DNA of 38,660 nucleotides, taken from positions 1 to 38,660 of the forward strand of contig QNCL01000003.1 of the NCBI GenBank assembly GCA_003645805.1. The letters are read 5' to 3'. Positions 5,052 through 13,904 of this stretch are shown piece after piece. This DNA is from Candidatus Omnitrophota bacterium (GTDB taxonomy: Bacteria > Omnitrophota > 4484-213). The notes beneath the pieces are model-generated. The model was given only the letters and a program-made list of their open reading frames with translations. It searched no databases and had not been told where the DNA came from. The position numbers and the translations under genes were made by a program. Each line of letters opens with the position of its first letter. Position 1 is the first letter of the stretch.

Positions 5052-6626
5052 ATGGAAGGGAAGGCAAAGAAGAACTATCTGGTTTTTGCTCGCAAGTATC
5101 GCCCTCAGCGTTTTGAGGAGATCATCGGGCAGGAGCATATTGCCCGGAGTCTAAGAAATGCTATCTCAAACAGGCGAATTGCTCACGCTTACCTCTTTGC
5201 CGGTGCGCGGGGAATAGGAAAGACAAGCACAGCGCGGATATTAGCCAAAGCCTTAAACTGCCTTAATGGTCCTACCCCTGATCCCTGCCAGAAGTGTGTT
5301 TTTTGTCGCGAGATAACCCAAGGGATTAGTATGGATGTGATAGAGATTGATGCTGCCTCCAATCGTGGAATTGAGGAGATTCGCAGTTTGCGAGAGAATG
5401 TGAAGTTTGCCCCCGCGCAAGGAAGGTTTAAGATATATATCGTGGATGAGGTGCATATGCTTACCCCTGAGGCTTTCAATGCTCTGCTGAAGACCTTAGA
5501 GGAGCCTCCGGGGCATATAAAATTTATCTTTGCCACCACCCAGCCCGAGAGGATTCCCACCACCATTCTCTCTCGTTGTCAGCGATTTGATTTCCGAAGG
5601 ATAAGCACACAGAAGATAGTAGAGCAATTGGAGAGAATTAGCAGAGAAGAAAAGGTAGAGGTGGAAGAAGGGGCTTTGTTTGCCATTGCCAGATTTGCTG
5701 AAGGAAGTATGCGTGATGCGGAATCTATCCTGGATCAAGTTGTTAGTTTCGGTGAAGGGAAGATAAAGGAGGAGGATGTTCACCTTCTTTTAGGGACGAT
5801 AGGGCAGGATTGCTTATTTGAATTTACTCAAACAATCGTGGAAAAAGAAATAGAGAAGGGGTTGAGTATTTTGGATAGGATAATAAAAGAAGGGAAGGAA
5901 ATAGAGCAATTTATGAAGGAACTTAGCGAGCACTTTCGTAATCTGATAATTGCCAAGGAGGGATTGTTTAATCTGATAGAACTTTCTGAGGAGAGAAAGA
6001 GCGGTATTGTTGAGCAAAGCAAAAGGTTTAGTTTAAGCGAACTCTTCTACATCTTAACTGCTATTAGCCATACCCGACAGATGATACGAACTTGCCTGGA
6101 TAAAAGGGTGTGGCTGGAGTTTTTCTTTCTTAAGATGGTAAACAGGGATAGTTTTCTCTCTTTAGAAGAGATCTTGAAGAGGCTCAGAACTCTGAAAGGA
6201 GAGGAGGGGGCAGGAGGAGATAAAGAGAAGGTGAGTGAGGAAAAAGAAAGGGAGGTAAAGAAGGATGAGATAAAGAAAGATAAGGATTGCTTTTTAGGAG
6301 AGTTAAAAGAGATATGGAAAGAGTGCGTGGAGGATGTGGGGAAGGAAAGGATGTCTCTGGCTACCTTTTTGGAAAAAGGAAAACTACTTTCTGTGGAGGG
6401 GAGTAAAGCAAAGATTGGTTTTCCCGCAGATTTCTCCTTCTATTACCAGAATCTGCAAAGAGAAGAGAATAGGCGAATAGTGGAGAAGGTAATAAGTAGG
6501 AGGTTGAACAGAGAGGCAAAGGTAGAGTTCCTGTTGATGGAAGAGAAGGAATCAAGTAAGAGCGAATCTCTGCCTTCCTCAGTAAAGAAGGCGATGGAGA
6601 TATTTGGAGGCAAGATACTGAAATAG
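5052..6626 (+). CDS. dnaX: DNA polymerase III subunit gamma/tau
   Basis: ARKYRP, GxRGxGKTS, EIDAASN, DEVHML, LLKTLEEPP and SRC motifs. Confidence 0.97.
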   Translation: MEGKAKKNYLVFARKYRPQRFEEIIGQEHIARSLRNAISNRRIAHAYLFAGARGIGKTSTARILAKALNCLNGPTPDPCQKCVFCREITQGISMDVIEIDAASNRGIEEIRSLRENVKFAPAQGRFKIYIVDEVHMLTPEAFNALLKTLEEPPGHIKFIFATTQPERIPTTILSRCQRFDFRRISTQKIVEQLERISREEKVEVEEGALFAIARFAEGSMRDAESILDQVVSFGEGKIKEEDVHLLLGTIGQDCLFEFTQTIVEKEIEKGLSILDRIIKEGKEIEQFMKELSEHFRNLIIAKEGLFNLIELSEERKSGIVEQSKRFSLSELFYILTAISHTRQMIRTCLDKRVWLEFFFLKMVNRDSFLSLEEILKRLRTLKGEEGAGGDKEKVSEEKEREVKKDEIKKDKDCFLGELKEIWKECVEDVGKERMSLATFLEKGKLLSVEGSKAKIGFPADFSFYYQNLQREENRRIVEKVISRRLNREAKVEFLLMEEKESSKSESLPSSVKKAMEIFGGKILK

Positions 6627-6628
6627 CA

Positions 6629-7222
6629 ATGTATCCTCAACCTTTAGAAAACCTGATTACAGAACTGAAAAAGATGCCAGGGGTGGGGAGACGTTCTGCA
6701 GAGAGGATAGCCTTTTATATCCTTAAGATGCCTCCTGAGGAAATGCTTAAGTTAATCTCCTCTATCCAGAGAGCAAAGAAGGGTTTATTTTACTGCCGTA
6801 TATGCAATAGCCTTTCCGAGAAAGAGGTGTGTTCTATTTGTGATAATCCCAATCGTTCTTCTACAACCGTCTGTATAGTAGAGAACCCACAGGATATGGA
6901 AGCAATAGAGAGGACCGGAGTATATAAAGGACTTTACTATGTCTTAGGAGGAGCAATCTCTCCCCTTAAAGGAATTACCCCTCAGGATTTGAAGATAGAA
7001 AAACTCTTTTCCCTTCTGCGTTCAGGAAAGGTAAGGGAGGTGATTATTGCTACCAATTTTACTCCTGAGGGTGAGAACACCGCTCTTTTTCTTAATCAGA
7101 GGATAAGGGAACTAAATCTCAGGATAAAGATTACTCGACTATCTTTAGGTATCCCCTTAGGAAGCAGTTTAGAATATCTGGATGAAACAACCGTTGCTAA
7201 AGCAATAGAATTGCGTAGATGA
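6629..7222 (+). CDS. recR: Recombination mediator RecR
   Basis: PGVGRRSAER, C4 zinc finger, TOPRIM (CIVE, IIATN..EGE); follows dnaX. Confidence 0.96.
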   Translation: MYPQPLENLITELKKMPGVGRRSAERIAFYILKMPPEEMLKLISSIQRAKKGLFYCRICNSLSEKEVCSICDNPNRSSTTVCIVENPQDMEAIERTGVYKGLYYVLGGAISPLKGITPQDLKIEKLFSLLRSGKVREVIIATNFTPEGENTALFLNQRIRELNLRIKITRLSLGIPLGSSLEYLDETTVAKAIELRR

Positions 7223-7251
7223 GAAAAAGGATTTATACTTACTTCACCCAT

Positions 7252-7273
7252 ATTTCCACCCCAGGGGTGGAAA
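7252..7273. repeat. 22-bp direct repeat copy 1, containing perfect palindrome TTTCCACCCC-A-GGGGTGGAAA
   Basis: ATTTCCACCCCAGGGGTGGAAA is identical to 8398-8419. Confidence 0.95.
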
Positions 7274-7368
7274 ATTAGAAAATTAAACCAACAAATTTTT
7301 GCTTGACAAAAAGGGAGCGGTACAGAGGCGTGGTTGGTAATCCGTAATATCGCGTTAATATAAGTAAA

Positions 7369-8448
7369 GTGAAAATCCTCGTTACCCGGATGGGAAACAT
7401 TGGAGACATGCTTTTTATTACCCCTCTTCTTGCGGCTATCAAGGCGATTATCCCTCAGAGCCAAATATATATCCTTTCCCCGAAATATAGTAAGGAAGTA
7501 CTGGAGGGGAATCCAGATGTAGATTATCTGTTTACTTTCTACACCAAGACAAAAAGGCTCAGGAATAAGGTGCACAATATGTTGCTTTTCAACCGACTGA
7601 AGAAGATTTATTTTGACCTCCTGTTTTGTTTGGATATGGATGAAAATGTCATATCTTTTCTGAGAAGGCTACCACGGGTAAAGACTTGGGTAGGATTTCG
7701 TAAGCCTGCGAATGTAATGAGAGCATTGAAAGGAGATATGCACGCGGCGGATAACTATCTCTTTCTTTTGAAAGAACTTTTTCCATCGATCAATATTGAA
7801 CCGCACAGGAAAAGGTTTTCTTTCTTTGTGCCTCAGCGGCAAAAGGAAAAGACCAAATTGTTTTTGGTTCGACATAGATTATCTGATCCTGTTTTAATCT
7901 GTCCCTGTACAAGCGAGTTCAAACCCTCGAGGTTATGGCCTACTAAAAATTGGATTTCTTTTATCCAACGCTTACTTAAAGAGACAAATATTCCTGTCAT
8001 TGTCGTATCCAAGAGTAAGAAAGAGAAACCCATCCCCGAACTTTATAGATGTTTTCGCAAAAGGGTCTATTTTTGGTATGGTAAATCCCTTACAGAGACG
8101 GTCGCTCTTATGGCTCTGGCAAAGGCTATTGTCTGTTTGGATAGTGGAACTCTTCATCTTGCGACGGCTGTTTCCACTGGGAAGGTTATTTCTCTTTTTG
8201 GTCCCTCAAACTCTGTCCATACCGGGCCGTATCCTGAGGATGTTTCCCAATGGAAAGTGGTTCGCGACCTCTCTTGTCAGATAGGACCATGCAACACTTT
8301 CCCAAGGGAAAAGATTCCTCAAGAGTGTCTTTATGCAGAATTCACACCTTGTATGGAACGGATAAGTGTGGAGAGTGTATGGAGGGCTTTGCTGGGCATT
8401 TCCACCCCAGGGGTGGAAAGTTCGCCTTTGGAAAAAGAGAGGGGCTAA
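7369..8448 (+). CDS. Glycosyltransferase family 9 (heptosyltransferase-like)
   Basis: MKILVTRMGNIGDML, DSGTLHLA, LFGPS and C-terminal Cys cluster CQIGPC..C..CM; GTG start without obvious SD. Confidence 0.9.
   Translation: MKILVTRMGNIGDMLFITPLLAAIKAIIPQSQIYILSPKYSKEVLEGNPDVDYLFTFYTKTKRLRNKVHNMLLFNRLKKIYFDLLFCLDMDENVISFLRRLPRVKTWVGFRKPANVMRALKGDMHAADNYLFLLKELFPSINIEPHRKRFSFFVPQRQKEKTKLFLVRHRLSDPVLICPCTSEFKPSRLWPTKNWISFIQRLLKETNIPVIVVSKSKKEKPIPELYRCFRKRVYFWYGKSLTETVALMALAKAIVCLDSGTLHLATAVSTGKVISLFGPSNSVHTGPYPEDVSQWKVVRDLSCQIGPCNTFPREKIPQECLYAEFTPCMERISVESVWRALLGISTPGVESSPLEKERG
8398..8419. repeat. 22-bp direct repeat copy 2 (inside the GT9 3' end, encodes ISTPGVE)
   Basis: Identical to 7252-7273. 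Confidence 0.95.
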
Positions 8449-8466
8449 CATAAGGTAGAAGGAAAA

Positions 8467-8494
8467 TTGACTTTTTTAGAAAACTTGCTATTAT
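8467..8494 (+). promoter_or_regulatory. Putative sigma70 promoter TTGACT-N16-TATTAT with TGn extension
   Basis: Near-consensus hexamers upstream of a GGGAGG SD and ATG 8512. Confidence 0.55.
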
Positions 8495-8511
8495 ATTAGA
8501 AAAATGGGAGG

Positions 8512-9588
8512 ATGAGAGAAGGGAGAGTTTTCCTTTTTTTATTTTTAGTTCTATGGCTTGCTACCGCGGGAGGAGGTTATGTTGTCTTCAAGCAAAAGAG
8601 AGAAATAGAGGAAAGATATCAGGAGGCTCAAGAGGAATTTAGAAGAAAACAGCAGGAGTTCAGAAAAGAGAGAAAAGGGTTAAAAGCAGAGTTGACAAGA
8701 TTAGAGAAGGAGATAGAAGAACTTGGGAGGGAAAAGGAAGGGTTAGTAAAGGAGATAGGAGAGTATAAAGAGAAGATAGCAAGACTATCGGAGGAGATTG
8801 AGAAGAAAGAGAAGAGATATAAGACACTGCGGGATAAGTATCAATCTGCTCTTAAGAAGCAGAGAACTCTCAGTCAGCAAATAAAGAGGCTTGCAGGAGA
8901 GAGGATAATCTTAAAAAAAGAGATAGATAAATTGCGTTCAGATTCATTTTTGAGTGAGGTTTTGGAAGAGAAGAATAAACTGCTTCTTGAGAAAGAGGAC
9001 TGGGATAAGGAGAGAAGGAATTTAATCCAAGGAATTTTGGATCAGAAGAAGGAAAACTTTTCTCTTAAGCAACAAATAGAGAAACTTAGACAGACTTTAG
9101 ATAAAGCAAATAAGGAGAGGGAGAGGTTTGTTAAGGAGATAGGGAAGGTAATAGAGGTATTCAGAGAGGGGCTCAGGCAGATAAGTAGAGCAAGATCAGC
9201 AAGAGAATTAAGAGAGGAGATAAAAAAGGTAGAGGAAAGATTAGCAGGAGATATACGCGGGATTGAATTGCCCCTTTTGGTCGTTTCTCCCTCCAGCAGA
9301 AGCACGCATAGAGAAAAGAAGAGGTTTGTGCGATTGGAAAGAGAGCAGGTTTCAGGAGGAGAGAGGAAAGAAGGGGAGGTTTTGCAGGTTAATAGAAGAT
9401 ATAATTTTCTGATAATAGATATGGGAGAGGAAGAGGGGGTAGAAGAAGGAGAGGTCTTAGAGGTTTATCAGGACAGAGAGAGGATTGGAGAAGTAAAGGT
9501 GATAGAGGTGCGCGAGCAGGTATCTGCCGCAGATATTATTAGTTTCAGAAGGAGAATAAAAAAAGGAGATAAGGTGGTAAGGGAATAA
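8512..9588 (+). CDS. Membrane-anchored long coiled-coil protein with C-terminal beta domain (FlgT-C-like pattern)
   Basis: Hydrophobic N-terminal segment, about 210 aa of E/K/R heptad sequence, C-terminal GEVLQVN..FLIIDMGEEEGV..G..LEVY..IGEVKV. Confidence 0.75.
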   Translation: MREGRVFLFLFLVLWLATAGGGYVVFKQKREIEERYQEAQEEFRRKQQEFRKERKGLKAELTRLEKEIEELGREKEGLVKEIGEYKEKIARLSEEIEKKEKRYKTLRDKYQSALKKQRTLSQQIKRLAGERIILKKEIDKLRSDSFLSEVLEEKNKLLLEKEDWDKERRNLIQGILDQKKENFSLKQQIEKLRQTLDKANKERERFVKEIGKVIEVFREGLRQISRARSARELREEIKKVEERLAGDIRGIELPLLVVSPSSRSTHREKKRFVRLEREQVSGGERKEGEVLQVNRRYNFLIIDMGEEEGVEEGEVLEVYQDRERIGEVKVIEVREQVSAADIISFRRRIKKGDKVVRE

Positions 9589-9605
9589 AGAGAGGCTTTA
9601 AGGAT

Positions 9606-9681
9606 GCCGAGGTAGCTCAGGTGGTAGAGCGAGGGACTGAAAATCCCTGCGTCGGCGGTTCAACTCCGCCCCTCGGCACCA
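9606..9681 (+). tRNA. tRNA-Phe(GAA)
   Basis: Acceptor GCCGAGG/CCTCGGC, anticodon arm AGGGA-CTGAAAA-TCCCT, TTCAACT T-loop, encoded CCA. Confidence 0.97.
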
Positions 9682-9707
9682 ATAAAGAAAAGAATAGCAA
9701 ACAAAAG

Positions 9708-10637
9708 GTGTTTATTGCTGTTGATATAGGAGGAACAAAGACAGAGGTTGCGATAGGAGAAGAAAGGGTAGAGAAGTTCAAGGTCATTCCTACCCCTGCA
9801 GAGTTTGAAAATTTCCTTTCCTCACTCTTTTTGCTAATAGAGAGGGTAGGGAAAGGGAAGAAGATAAAAGCGATAGGAATTTCTGCCCCTGGTCCGTTAG
9901 ACCCCGTAAAAGGGTTGATCTTTCCTTCTCCTAATCTAAAATGGAAAGAAGCAAAGATAAAGGAGGTGCTGGAGAAGAGGTTTACTTTGCCTGTTTTCTT
10001 AGAGAACGATGCTAATCTGGCAGGATTGGGAGAGTGTTTTCAGGGAGCAGGAAAAGGCGCAGATTCAGTCTTCTATATTACAGTAAGCACAGGAATTGGA
10101 GGGGCGTTTATTCTCCAAGGGAAGATTTACCAGGGAGCAAGTTTTGACGCAGGAGAGATTGGGCATACTGTTGTTCTGGATAATGGCCCAAGATGTAATT
10201 GCGGAAGAAAGGGGTGTTTAGAAGCACTCTCCAGTGGCACCGCCATCGCCAAAAGGGCAAAAAGGGGATTAAAAAGATATCCCCATTCTTTGATTTGGCA
10301 ATTAGTGGAAAATAGAAAAGAATTGGTAGACGCTCAGGTAGTAGTGAAGGCAGTGCGTGCAGGAGATGAGTTTGCCTGTAAGATATGGGAGGAGAGTTGT
10401 CGTTTTCTGGCTCTTGGGGTTGCCAATATGATTAGCCTGCTCAATCCTCAAAAGGTAATTATTGGAGGAGGAATAAGTAAAGCAGGAGAGATTCTTTTCC
10501 GACCTTTACGCAAGATGGTCAAAGAAATAGGCTGGAAGAGAGCGGTAAGGTATTGCAGGATAGAGAAGGCTAAATTGCGAAATCCTGCGATTGTGGGAGC
10601 ACTGGTGTATGCGAAAAGCAAACTTAGTTCTTCTTAG
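9708..10637 (+). CDS. ROK family sugar kinase (glucokinase-like)
   Basis: VDIGGTK, ENDAN, STGIGG, GEIGH and CNCGRKGCLE motifs; start placed at GTG 9708 because the track start 9621 lies within tRNA-Phe. Confidence 0.9.
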   Translation: MFIAVDIGGTKTEVAIGEERVEKFKVIPTPAEFENFLSSLFLLIERVGKGKKIKAIGISAPGPLDPVKGLIFPSPNLKWKEAKIKEVLEKRFTLPVFLENDANLAGLGECFQGAGKGADSVFYITVSTGIGGAFILQGKIYQGASFDAGEIGHTVVLDNGPRCNCGRKGCLEALSSGTAIAKRAKRGLKRYPHSLIWQLVENRKELVDAQVVVKAVRAGDEFACKIWEESCRFLALGVANMISLLNPQKVIIGGGISKAGEILFRPLRKMVKEIGWKRAVRYCRIEKAKLRNPAIVGALVYAKSKLSSS

Positions 10638-13727: not shown

Positions 13728-13904
13728 ATGGCAAAAGCAAAGGTAGACCAGGAGAAGTGTGTGGGTTGCTCTGCCTGTGTAAGCGCTTGTCCCGTAGGGG
13801 CGATTACGGTCTCAGAAGGAAAAGCAAAGGTAGACCAGGAGAAGTGTGTGGGTTGCTCTGCCTGTGTAAGCGCTTGTCCTATGGAGGCGATAAAGGTAGA
13901 GTAA
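13728..13904 (+). CDS. 2[4Fe-4S] ferredoxin, 58 aa (not in ORF track)
   Basis: AAGGAGGTG SD; MAKAKVDQEKCVGCSACVSACPVGAITVSEGKAKVDQEKCVGCSACVSACPMEAIKVE has two CxxCxxCxxxCP motifs. Confidence 0.95.
   Translation: MAKAKVDQEKCVGCSACVSACPVGAITVSEGKAKVDQEKCVGCSACVSACPMEAIKVE
13733..13879 (+). repeat. Perfect 60-nt direct repeat (13733-13792 = 13820-13879), period 87 nt
   Basis: Direct base-by-base comparison. Confidence 0.95.

Follow-up and report, generated by a model that had tools for sequence, protein, structure and literature searches.

A short perfect palindrome occurs twice at the edges of a glycosyltransferase gene in a 38,660-nucleotide stretch of DNA from a Candidatus Omnitrophota bacterium, referred to here as the window. 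The window is contig C3 of the metagenome-assembled genome (MAG) G000, which comprises 869,646 bp in 79 contigs, is 96.8% complete and has a GC content of 41.8%. The gene, a member of the GT9 family, lies between recR and a gene for a coiled-coil protein; one palindrome is found in the spacer behind recR and the other overlies the end of the GT9 reading frame. A first-pass annotation interpreted this arrangement as a gene cassette that had integrated as a circle by crossover within the palindrome. The analysis described below favours a different explanation, to which a probability of about 0.8 is attached, namely that the palindrome is a dispersed repetitive extragenic palindrome (REP), that the two copies flanking GT9 are independent of each other, and that the gene was inserted without the left REP acting as a junction. 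It is thus improbable that the two identical palindromes mark the termini of a mobile cassette.

The locus and its two palindromes

The features of the locus, including the GT9 open reading frame (ORF), are listed below in window coordinates.

6629..7222, + strand: recR, with the Pfam domains RecR_HhH, RecR_ZnF, Toprim_4 and RecR_C; the left neighbour, conserved by synteny
7252..7273, no strand: left REP copy (22-mer), with its palindromic 21-bp core at 7253-7273
7299..7310, + strand: the -35-like 12-mer TTGCTTGACAAA, between the left REP and the GT9 homology
7345..8395, + strand: segment homologous to GT9 orthologues of other contexts, from DNA and protein alignments; the 5' limit is approximate
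7369..8448, + strand: GT9 ORF of the heptosyltransferase family (Pfam PF01075), 359 amino acids, GTG start
8398..8419, no strand: right REP copy, its first codon (8398-8400) at the position of the orthologues' TAA stop
8467..8494, + strand: promoter-like site upstream of the coiled-coil gene (TTGACT, 16 nt, TATTAT; 10/12 matches), with a TG preceding the -10
8512..9588, + strand: coiled-coil protein gene, the right neighbour, found directly after recR in three sister-genus genomes
9606..9681, + strand: tRNA-Phe (GAA), 3' of the coiled-coil gene, given for context only

The 22-mer ATTTCCACCCCAGGGGTGGAAA is present as an exact match on the + strand at 7252-7273 and 8398-8419, a spacing of 1146 bp. 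Its 21-bp core, TTTCCACCCCAGGGGTGGAAA, is a perfect 10+1+10 palindrome centred on an A, which as single-stranded DNA (ssDNA) forms a 9-bp stem with a 3-nt loop of about -8.7 kcal/mol (DNA parameters). The spacing, the palindrome and the stem had been described in the first-pass annotation, which had also noticed the 22-mer nowhere else. This is true of the window, where there is no third site with up to 3 mismatches and where the expectation from 100 shuffles is 0.00, but not of the genome as a whole, in which the repeat is found many times over.

The left copy begins 30 bp past the recR stop codon. The right copy lies, as had been stated, inside the GT9 ORF, where it encodes, together with the spacer beyond it, the odd 16-residue tail ISTPGVESSPLEKERG. 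Directly after the left copy the sequence reads GAA-AAT-TAG in the frame of the GT9 tail, and it was this that had been taken as a stop codon restored upon circularisation. The triplets are indeed present and in frame, but the in-frame stop behind the left copy, which was noticed post hoc, is at most mildly unusual: 2/47 copy-orientations have a stop within 2 codons past the palindrome, with the left copy counted among them. A role as an intrinsic terminator was rejected, as there are no terminator-like sites in 7150-8600 and 5 copies of the palindrome are located between divergent genes.

Dispersal of the palindrome and its link to a transposase

The genome contains 24 exact copies of the 21-mer and 2 more with 1-2 mismatches, spread over 20 contigs, such that 92% of the copies (24/26) are identical and represent a 'master sequence'. 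A symmetrised position matrix has an invariant core with sharp edges, and flanks that are unrelated save for a weak CC-N-A / T-N-GG extension. The consensus of these flanks is an A before the core and a T after it, with CC and GG two to three positions farther out, which is TAG-like and not a clear GTAG. A longer element around the palindrome, either a miniature inverted-repeat transposable element or an insertion sequence, is excluded by the position matrix and by self-BLAST, and a CRISPR repeat is ruled out as the copies are kilobases apart. The genome-wide count therefore reveals an abundant dispersed repeat with unrelated flanks, an outcome that the first-pass annotation had itself named in advance as one that would speak against its cassette.

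Gene positions were taken from a crude ORF set that covers ~94% of the genome. Nearly all copies are intergenic and the copy at 8399 alone overlaps a homology-backed ORF; three further overlaps are with predicted ORFs that lack homology support or are over-extended at the N-terminus. The usual placement is 9-50 bp past the upstream gene and 40-180 bp ahead of the next start codon. By type of spacer, 5 copies are found in the 27 divergent spacers, 9 in tandem spacers and 1, which is doubtful, in the 40 convergent spacers. The hexamer TTGAC[AT], reading away from the repeat, occurs within 120 nt on 16/51 REP sides, mostly at a distance of 10-35 nt. A functional theme among the adjacent genes was looked for in 40 flanking ORFs and rejected, since these are mixed and include several sugar-nucleotide, glycosyltransferase and pilus genes with no single theme.

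REP sites are mostly non-orthologous between genera, while some orthologous sites persist within a genus; the genomes G002 and G004 have orthologous sites at which the 21-mer is unchanged even though the flanks differ. The sole candidate for a shared site, from nine sister-genus sites examined, is the REP upstream of an orthologous MiaB-like radical-SAM gene in both genera (G000:C10:17754 and L038, in G002:C116). Separately, at the starts of two G002 contigs (L032/L033, in C49 and C64) a REP and an insert of ~1 kb lie between genes that are adjacent in G000 (C67). This insert encodes a 40-45% homologue of the G000 gene at C5:5828-6568, which has its own REP 81 bp upstream, and the stop-to-stop frame of the inserted ORF passes through the REP.

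The connection with a transposase comes from an exact-match scan for the 21-mer in one genome per prokaryote species. The 21-mer was found in 47 stretches, mostly from MAG records of Candidatus Omnitrophota/Omnitrophica or 'uncultured Planctomycetia', and several of these hold multiple copies. In three of the genomes (G041:C29, G042:C18 and G043:C41) a pair of copies with a spacing of 731-747 bp encloses a single gene for a protein of 221-224 amino acids, with the exact 21-mer positioned 10-55 bp from the ends of the ORF; the orientation of a perfect palindrome cannot be read. All three proteins match Pfam Y1_Tnp (PF01797) at 31.6-37.3 bits against a cut-off of 23, and their top NCBIfam match is REP_Tyr_transpos, the 'REP-associated tyrosine transposase' (RAYT), with an E value of 2e-19. 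The residues H89-x-H91 and Y149, the latter within RY.HLNP, are invariant across 8 aligned homologues.

In the available text of Nunvar 2010 (PMC2817692) the rayt gene is 'always flanked by two REPs', which is the defining arrangement of RAYTs. The palindrome of the window is hence classed as a REP, because the identical 21-mer flanks the RAYT-type gene in three genomes and REPs are what flanks rayt. The 21-mer is, by this arrangement, the cognate repeat of a RAYT-type Y1/HUH transposase, and the hairpin-recognising HUH class of enzyme that the first-pass annotation had put forward is borne out by the copies on both sides of the gene in these three other genomes.

Full-length orthologues of this RAYT, with 44-59% identity, are encoded by 14/40 relatives, including all three sister-genus genomes. 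At 6 of the 10 orthologue loci examined the gene is flanked on each side by a palindrome, 2-35 bp away. Of the others, one locus has a palindrome with 21-bp arms on the downstream side alone, another has only a weak one and two lack any with arms of at least 8, one of these two being the locus in G002, where an imperfect palindrome can be made out by eye. The RAYT-flanking palindromes vary in sequence between genomes, and the 21-mer is identical in genomes whose proteins share 45-60% identity.

Some further observations on the repeat in other genomes can be added. G041, G042 and G043 each encode, besides the cognate RAYT, another full-length paralogue with 56-61% identity that is of the sister-genus type, as well as remoter Y1 proteins, and hence several RAYT lineages coexist in them. 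Tandem half-sites, in which GGGGTGGAAAT and ~8 nt are repeated two to three times, stand beside full palindromes at L091, L092, L104, L112 and L120. Many copies in other genomes have outer flanks of AACCTA before the core and TAGGTT after it.

The GT9 gene, its origin and its boundaries

The GT9 protein matches Pfam Glyco_transf_9 (PF01075) with an E value of 1.3e-20 and 74.2 bits, against a cut-off of 22. Its best NCBIfam match is heptosyltransferase II at 86.6 bits against a cut-off of 134.6, and it scores under the equivalog cut-offs of every NCBIfam heptosyltransferase model. The dnaX-recR pair is retained at all 29 relatives' recR loci examined and none of these (0/29) has a GT9 gene within ~1.5 kb of recR. 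In the three sister-genus genomes the coiled-coil gene comes straight after recR, with spacers of ~160-470 bp. From these comparisons the GT9 gene is a derived single-gene insertion at the recR locus. The nearest GT9 homologue in the 40 relatives and among the six paralogues of G000 is only 31% identical. Closer orthologues come from metagenome contigs, with identities of 80-81% (L070, L071) and 65% (L072), where the gene is located either in a GT9-GT2-ManC cluster or between a histidine kinase/sigma-54 regulator pair and OsmC. The gene does move, its orthologues occupying these two further contexts. At none of these loci (L070-L072) is there a copy of the palindrome within 4 mismatches, or any other strong palindrome at the ends of the gene.

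The orthologues also define the limits of the inserted segment. They finish with ...RALLD-stop and their TAA aligns with 8398-8400; the 3' homology stops at 8395, which is 2 nt ahead of the right 22-mer. At the other side the homology starts ~25 nt upstream of the GTG codon, which leaves ~72 nt between its start and the left REP. In this gap lies TTGCTTGACAAA, which has a single occurrence in G000; the sequence it matches in the three sister genomes is the -35 region of the spacer between recR and the coiled-coil gene, where one of the three has a C for the second T. As this 12-mer is shared with the sister spacers, the left REP is part of the native spacer, outside the inserted segment. The corresponding 'empty' spacers of the sister genus contain no REP, so that the expected empty site, a recR-coiled-coil junction with one repeat, is not what these relatives have. 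The idea of an inserted GT9 gene thus survives in part: the gene is derived at this locus and its 3' boundary coincides with the right palindrome, but the left palindrome is outside the segment. The specific proposal of a GT9 cassette integrated by crossover in the palindrome is not supported, given a dispersed repeat, orthologues without palindromes and a left REP beyond the segment.

In composition the gene is ordinary, with z values of +0.27 for GC and +0.68 for GC3 and a codon-usage distance at the 81st percentile of 251 genes. The codon-usage comparison that had been recommended as a check therefore yields no sign of a cassette, and a foreign origin on the grounds of composition is rejected. 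The lower purine skew that had been ascribed to the insert is real, at a fraction of 0.50, but unremarkable (z -1.4 against 557 ORFs of at least 200 amino acids), the outlier being the neighbouring coiled-coil gene (z +2.9).

The junctions were followed in contigs of four public runs (X1-X4) placed on 6300-9900, bearing in mind that contigs drop rare variants. No contig skips the 1146 bp, as an empty site would, or joins 8419 to 7274, as a circle would; these being contigs only, this is not evidence against rare excision. The recR-REP-GT9 arrangement is reproduced with 0-1 differences in X2 and X3, which come from other studies, and X3 also contains the GT9-REP-coiled-coil side. X4 contains a relative that is ~90-95% identical, of which one contig spans the left spacer and the 5' end of GT9 and has 1 nt and 8 nt absent from within the left palindrome; GT9 is not connected to recR or to the coiled-coil gene by any one contig of X4. 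A joint in X4 that skips 959 bp was set aside as too weak, with a side of 21 nt. In X1 a contig with a depth of 3.9 joins 8423 back to 7252 via 13 other letters, with aligned parts that are essentially repeat only. This back-joint probably stems from a pair of neighbouring REPs at some other locus, one missing from the MAG.

Beyond the coiled-coil gene, the tRNA-Phe at 9606-9681 separates it from a ROK-like ORF. The long ORF call from 9621 overlaps the tRNA, and so the real start of the ROK-like gene lies further downstream. The depth of 180-370 over the tRNA in all four runs reflects tRNA conservation. Elsewhere in the window, 13733-13810 and 13820-13897 form a tandem duplication of 78 bp with 92% identity.

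Proposed independent REP insertions weighed against their alternatives

REPs are short palindromes of ~20-40 bp that can fold into a stem-loop, as this 21-bp core can. A RAYT, being a Y1/HUH enzyme, would recognise the repeat and spread it by working on its hairpin in ssDNA; such a mode of spread is proposed by analogy with the systems of E. coli and Pseudomonas. The ~26 copies would have settled where a compact genome leaves a little intergenic DNA free and survived where the harm is small, between a stop codon and the next promoter. At this locus one REP would have landed in the spacer past recR, while the other landed on the GT9 stop codon and overwrote it, extending the protein by 16 residues up to the following stop codon of the spacer. 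The two insertions would then be separate events. GT9 itself would be a wandering single gene that came to lie between recR and the coiled-coil gene in this lineage. An estimate from 26 REPs and several hundred usable spacers is that ~0.7 pairs of adjacent occupied spacers arise per genome by chance, and one is seen.

Comparison with the REP/REPIN-RAYT systems of Enterobacteria, Pseudomonas and Stenotrophomonas (Nunvar 2010, PMC2817692, available text) reveals three likenesses: a dispersed hairpin-forming extragenic palindrome, a single-domain Y1/HUH gene flanked on both sides by the same palindrome, and a palindrome sequence that varies together with the RAYT lineage. There are also differences. 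The core here is a perfect 10+1+10 palindrome and not an imperfect one, and the ~26 copies are mostly singlets, in comparison with >100 per genome in the same available text. REPs have a conserved unpaired head of the GTAG or CGTC type (PMC3733652), given as a 'GT(A/G)G head' in PMC2817692, in so far as the text of both was available, whereas the flank here is T-N-GG (TAGG in other genomes) with no clear GTAG/CGTC head. Moreover, no cognate RAYT was found in G000, and the hosts are Omnitrophota-type MAGs of ~0.9-1.4 Mb rather than Proteobacteria. A full-text literature search for Omnitrophota together with RAYT returned nothing relevant, which does not show that the system is undescribed.

Two other families of mobile DNA resemble the arrangement to some extent. 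IS200/IS605 elements such as IS608 transpose by 'peel and paste', in which a Y1/HUH enzyme recognises subterminal ssDNA hairpins and the DNA between two hairpins forms an ssDNA circle as the intermediate; such elements carry their own tnpA, with tnpB or without it, between distinct left and right ends. The ssDNA circle is the intermediate that the cassette model of the first-pass annotation needs. In contrast, the bracketed ORF here is GT9, the genome has no Y1_Tnp match, and both 'ends' are identical, with the left one off the homology boundary. The attC sites of integrons are imperfect palindromes of 57-141 bp that are recombined by an adjacent IntI within an array. An integron cassette resembles the GT9 gene in being a single promoterless-looking gene with a palindromic site 3' of it, and a circular intermediate has been envisaged for both, but the palindrome here is a perfect one of 21 bp, dispersed genome-wide and without an array. 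There is no integrase in the window region read, in keeping with the earlier remark that no recombinase is adjacent; genome-wide there are two Xer-sized tyrosine recombinases (PF00589 matches) on other contigs (C13 and C22), and no Y1 transposase was found.

A number of points weigh against the explanation by independent REP insertions. A copy number of 26 is low for a REP family, and the copies are mostly singlets and not the inverted doublets (REPINs) that are held to be mobile. The GT9 homology ends exactly beside the right REP, and an in-frame stop follows the left REP; both observations fit a REP-mediated junction equally. The -35-like hexamers beside 16/51 REP sides would be compatible with a regulatory role in the host. 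The REP_Tyr_transpos scores of the three cognate proteins, 67-70 bits, are under the curated cut-off of 80. Within G000 the Pfam Y1_Tnp search gave no match at E <= 1, compared with matches in 10/14 control genomes, tblastn of the three cognate RAYTs against the genome gave nothing better than E 0.2, and a low-stringency scan of all its contig ends detected no RAYT fragment. Finally, G002 has 9 copies of the window REP, yet its one detected RAYT has a different flanking palindrome; this mismatch indicates that the link between repeat and enzyme is not always visible within a single genome.

The missing enzyme may be a matter of assembly. The genes neighbouring the RAYT in G041-G043 have a single orthologue in G000, at the end of contigs C60/C7, and the RAYT locus could therefore fall in an assembly or binning gap. 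In the available text of a study of REPIN populations (bioRxiv 10.1101/2022.05.22.493013), such populations decay once the RAYT is lost, and a high share of the master sequence accompanies a high replication rate. Taken with the 24/26 identical copies, this decay suggests that the RAYT is unassembled or was lost very recently. We infer that a cognate RAYT exists in the organism but is missing from the MAG, or that it has only just disappeared.

Of the alternatives, one concerns only the right junction, which could have been made by short-homology recombination, GT9 having been captured beside a REP that already existed in the spacer and acted as a recombination hot spot. This is unlikely. It would account for orthologue homology that ends 2 nt ahead of the right 22-mer, although a REP that inserted at the stop codon after the arrival of GT9 gives an identical picture, and the sister spacers are without a REP. 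Sister-genus REPs are also located at an indel boundary (L037/L043) and at a synteny breakpoint (L035/L044) relative to G000. In addition, 7/26 REPs of G000 are found within 200 bp of a contig end (C1 end, C6 start, C12 end, C14 start, C28 start, C47 end and C48 end), where an estimated ~0.9 would be expected. However, contig breaks at a repeat of 21-35 bp can be an assembly effect at ~13x depth, and this excess may be technical. The one break that was followed involves L121 (G044:C27, binned in another MAG), which joins C26 and C47 of G000 by exact 123-bp overlaps, the overlap at C47 beginning at the REP. It proved to be an ordinary contig of housekeeping genes, and rearrangement at the population level was rejected as the origin of the palindrome-ended contigs in favour of a binning break.

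About equally improbable is that REP-GT9-REP forms a composite mobile unit, in which a RAYT acting in trans cuts at the two hairpins of one strand and moves the gene as an ssDNA circle, much as IS200/IS605 elements do or as rayt itself is placed between two REPs. Such a unit is consistent with a gene that is derived at this locus, whose orthogroup is found in three different contexts, and with a 3' homology boundary exactly at the right REP; the in-frame stop past the left REP points the same way. The 21-mer also brackets AbiEi and AbiEii (L124, G041:C122, 796-3255), a HEPN protein and nucleotidyltransferase (L128, G045:C41, 1653-3153), an AAA_14/DUF4143 ATPase (L123, G041:C52, 456-2064) and rayt itself. 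A circularised module is part of the model for the formation of bacterial interspersed mosaic elements in the available text of Nunvar et al. (PMC2817692). Set against this are the ~72 nt between the left REP and GT9 homology, with the native 12-mer within them, the 80% and 65% orthologues without palindromes, the empty sites of the sister genus without a REP, and the lack of a detectable RAYT in G000. Moreover, one bracketed gene per 26 REPs is about the level of chance. That pairs of REPs generally serve as ends of RAYT-mobilised gene cassettes, excised as ssDNA circles and re-inserted, is similarly improbable; if it were true, REP-RAYT systems would serve to shuffle surface and defence genes in small-genome Omnitrophota. 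As a separate observation, one side of the accessory modules at L123, L124 and L128 is at times a REP doublet with a spacing of 51-70 bp.

That the palindrome is chiefly a binding site for a host protein, such as an operator or a nucleoid-protein site upstream of promoters, with the RAYT association secondary, is very unlikely: its position 40-180 bp upstream of start codons, its occurrence in divergent rather than convergent spacers (with the doubtful copy noted above), the nearby -35-like hexamers, the identity of the 21-mer at orthologous G002/G004 sites and across distant genomes, and the tandem half-sites beside some copies would all suit such a role, but perfect identity at 24/26 copies is unlike transcription-factor sites, the sites are mostly non-orthologous between genera, the downstream genes have no single function, one copy is inside a coding region and the palindrome varies together with the RAYT.

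Independent insertion of dispersed REPs thus remains the preferred explanation, and a feature that resembles the private ends of a cassette is an ordinary dispersed REP of a RAYT-type system in an under-studied phylum. The findings document, for a phylum whose genomes are very small, a REP-RAYT system in which the palindromes co-vary. They also describe a REP population of which 92% is master sequence, in a MAG that yielded no RAYT, which means either that the RAYT locus is systematically lost from assemblies or bins, a caution for surveys of RAYTs in MAGs, or that REPs are kept intact in some other way. For the GT9 enzyme, the insertion of a REP has rewritten the C-terminus of an otherwise conserved protein.

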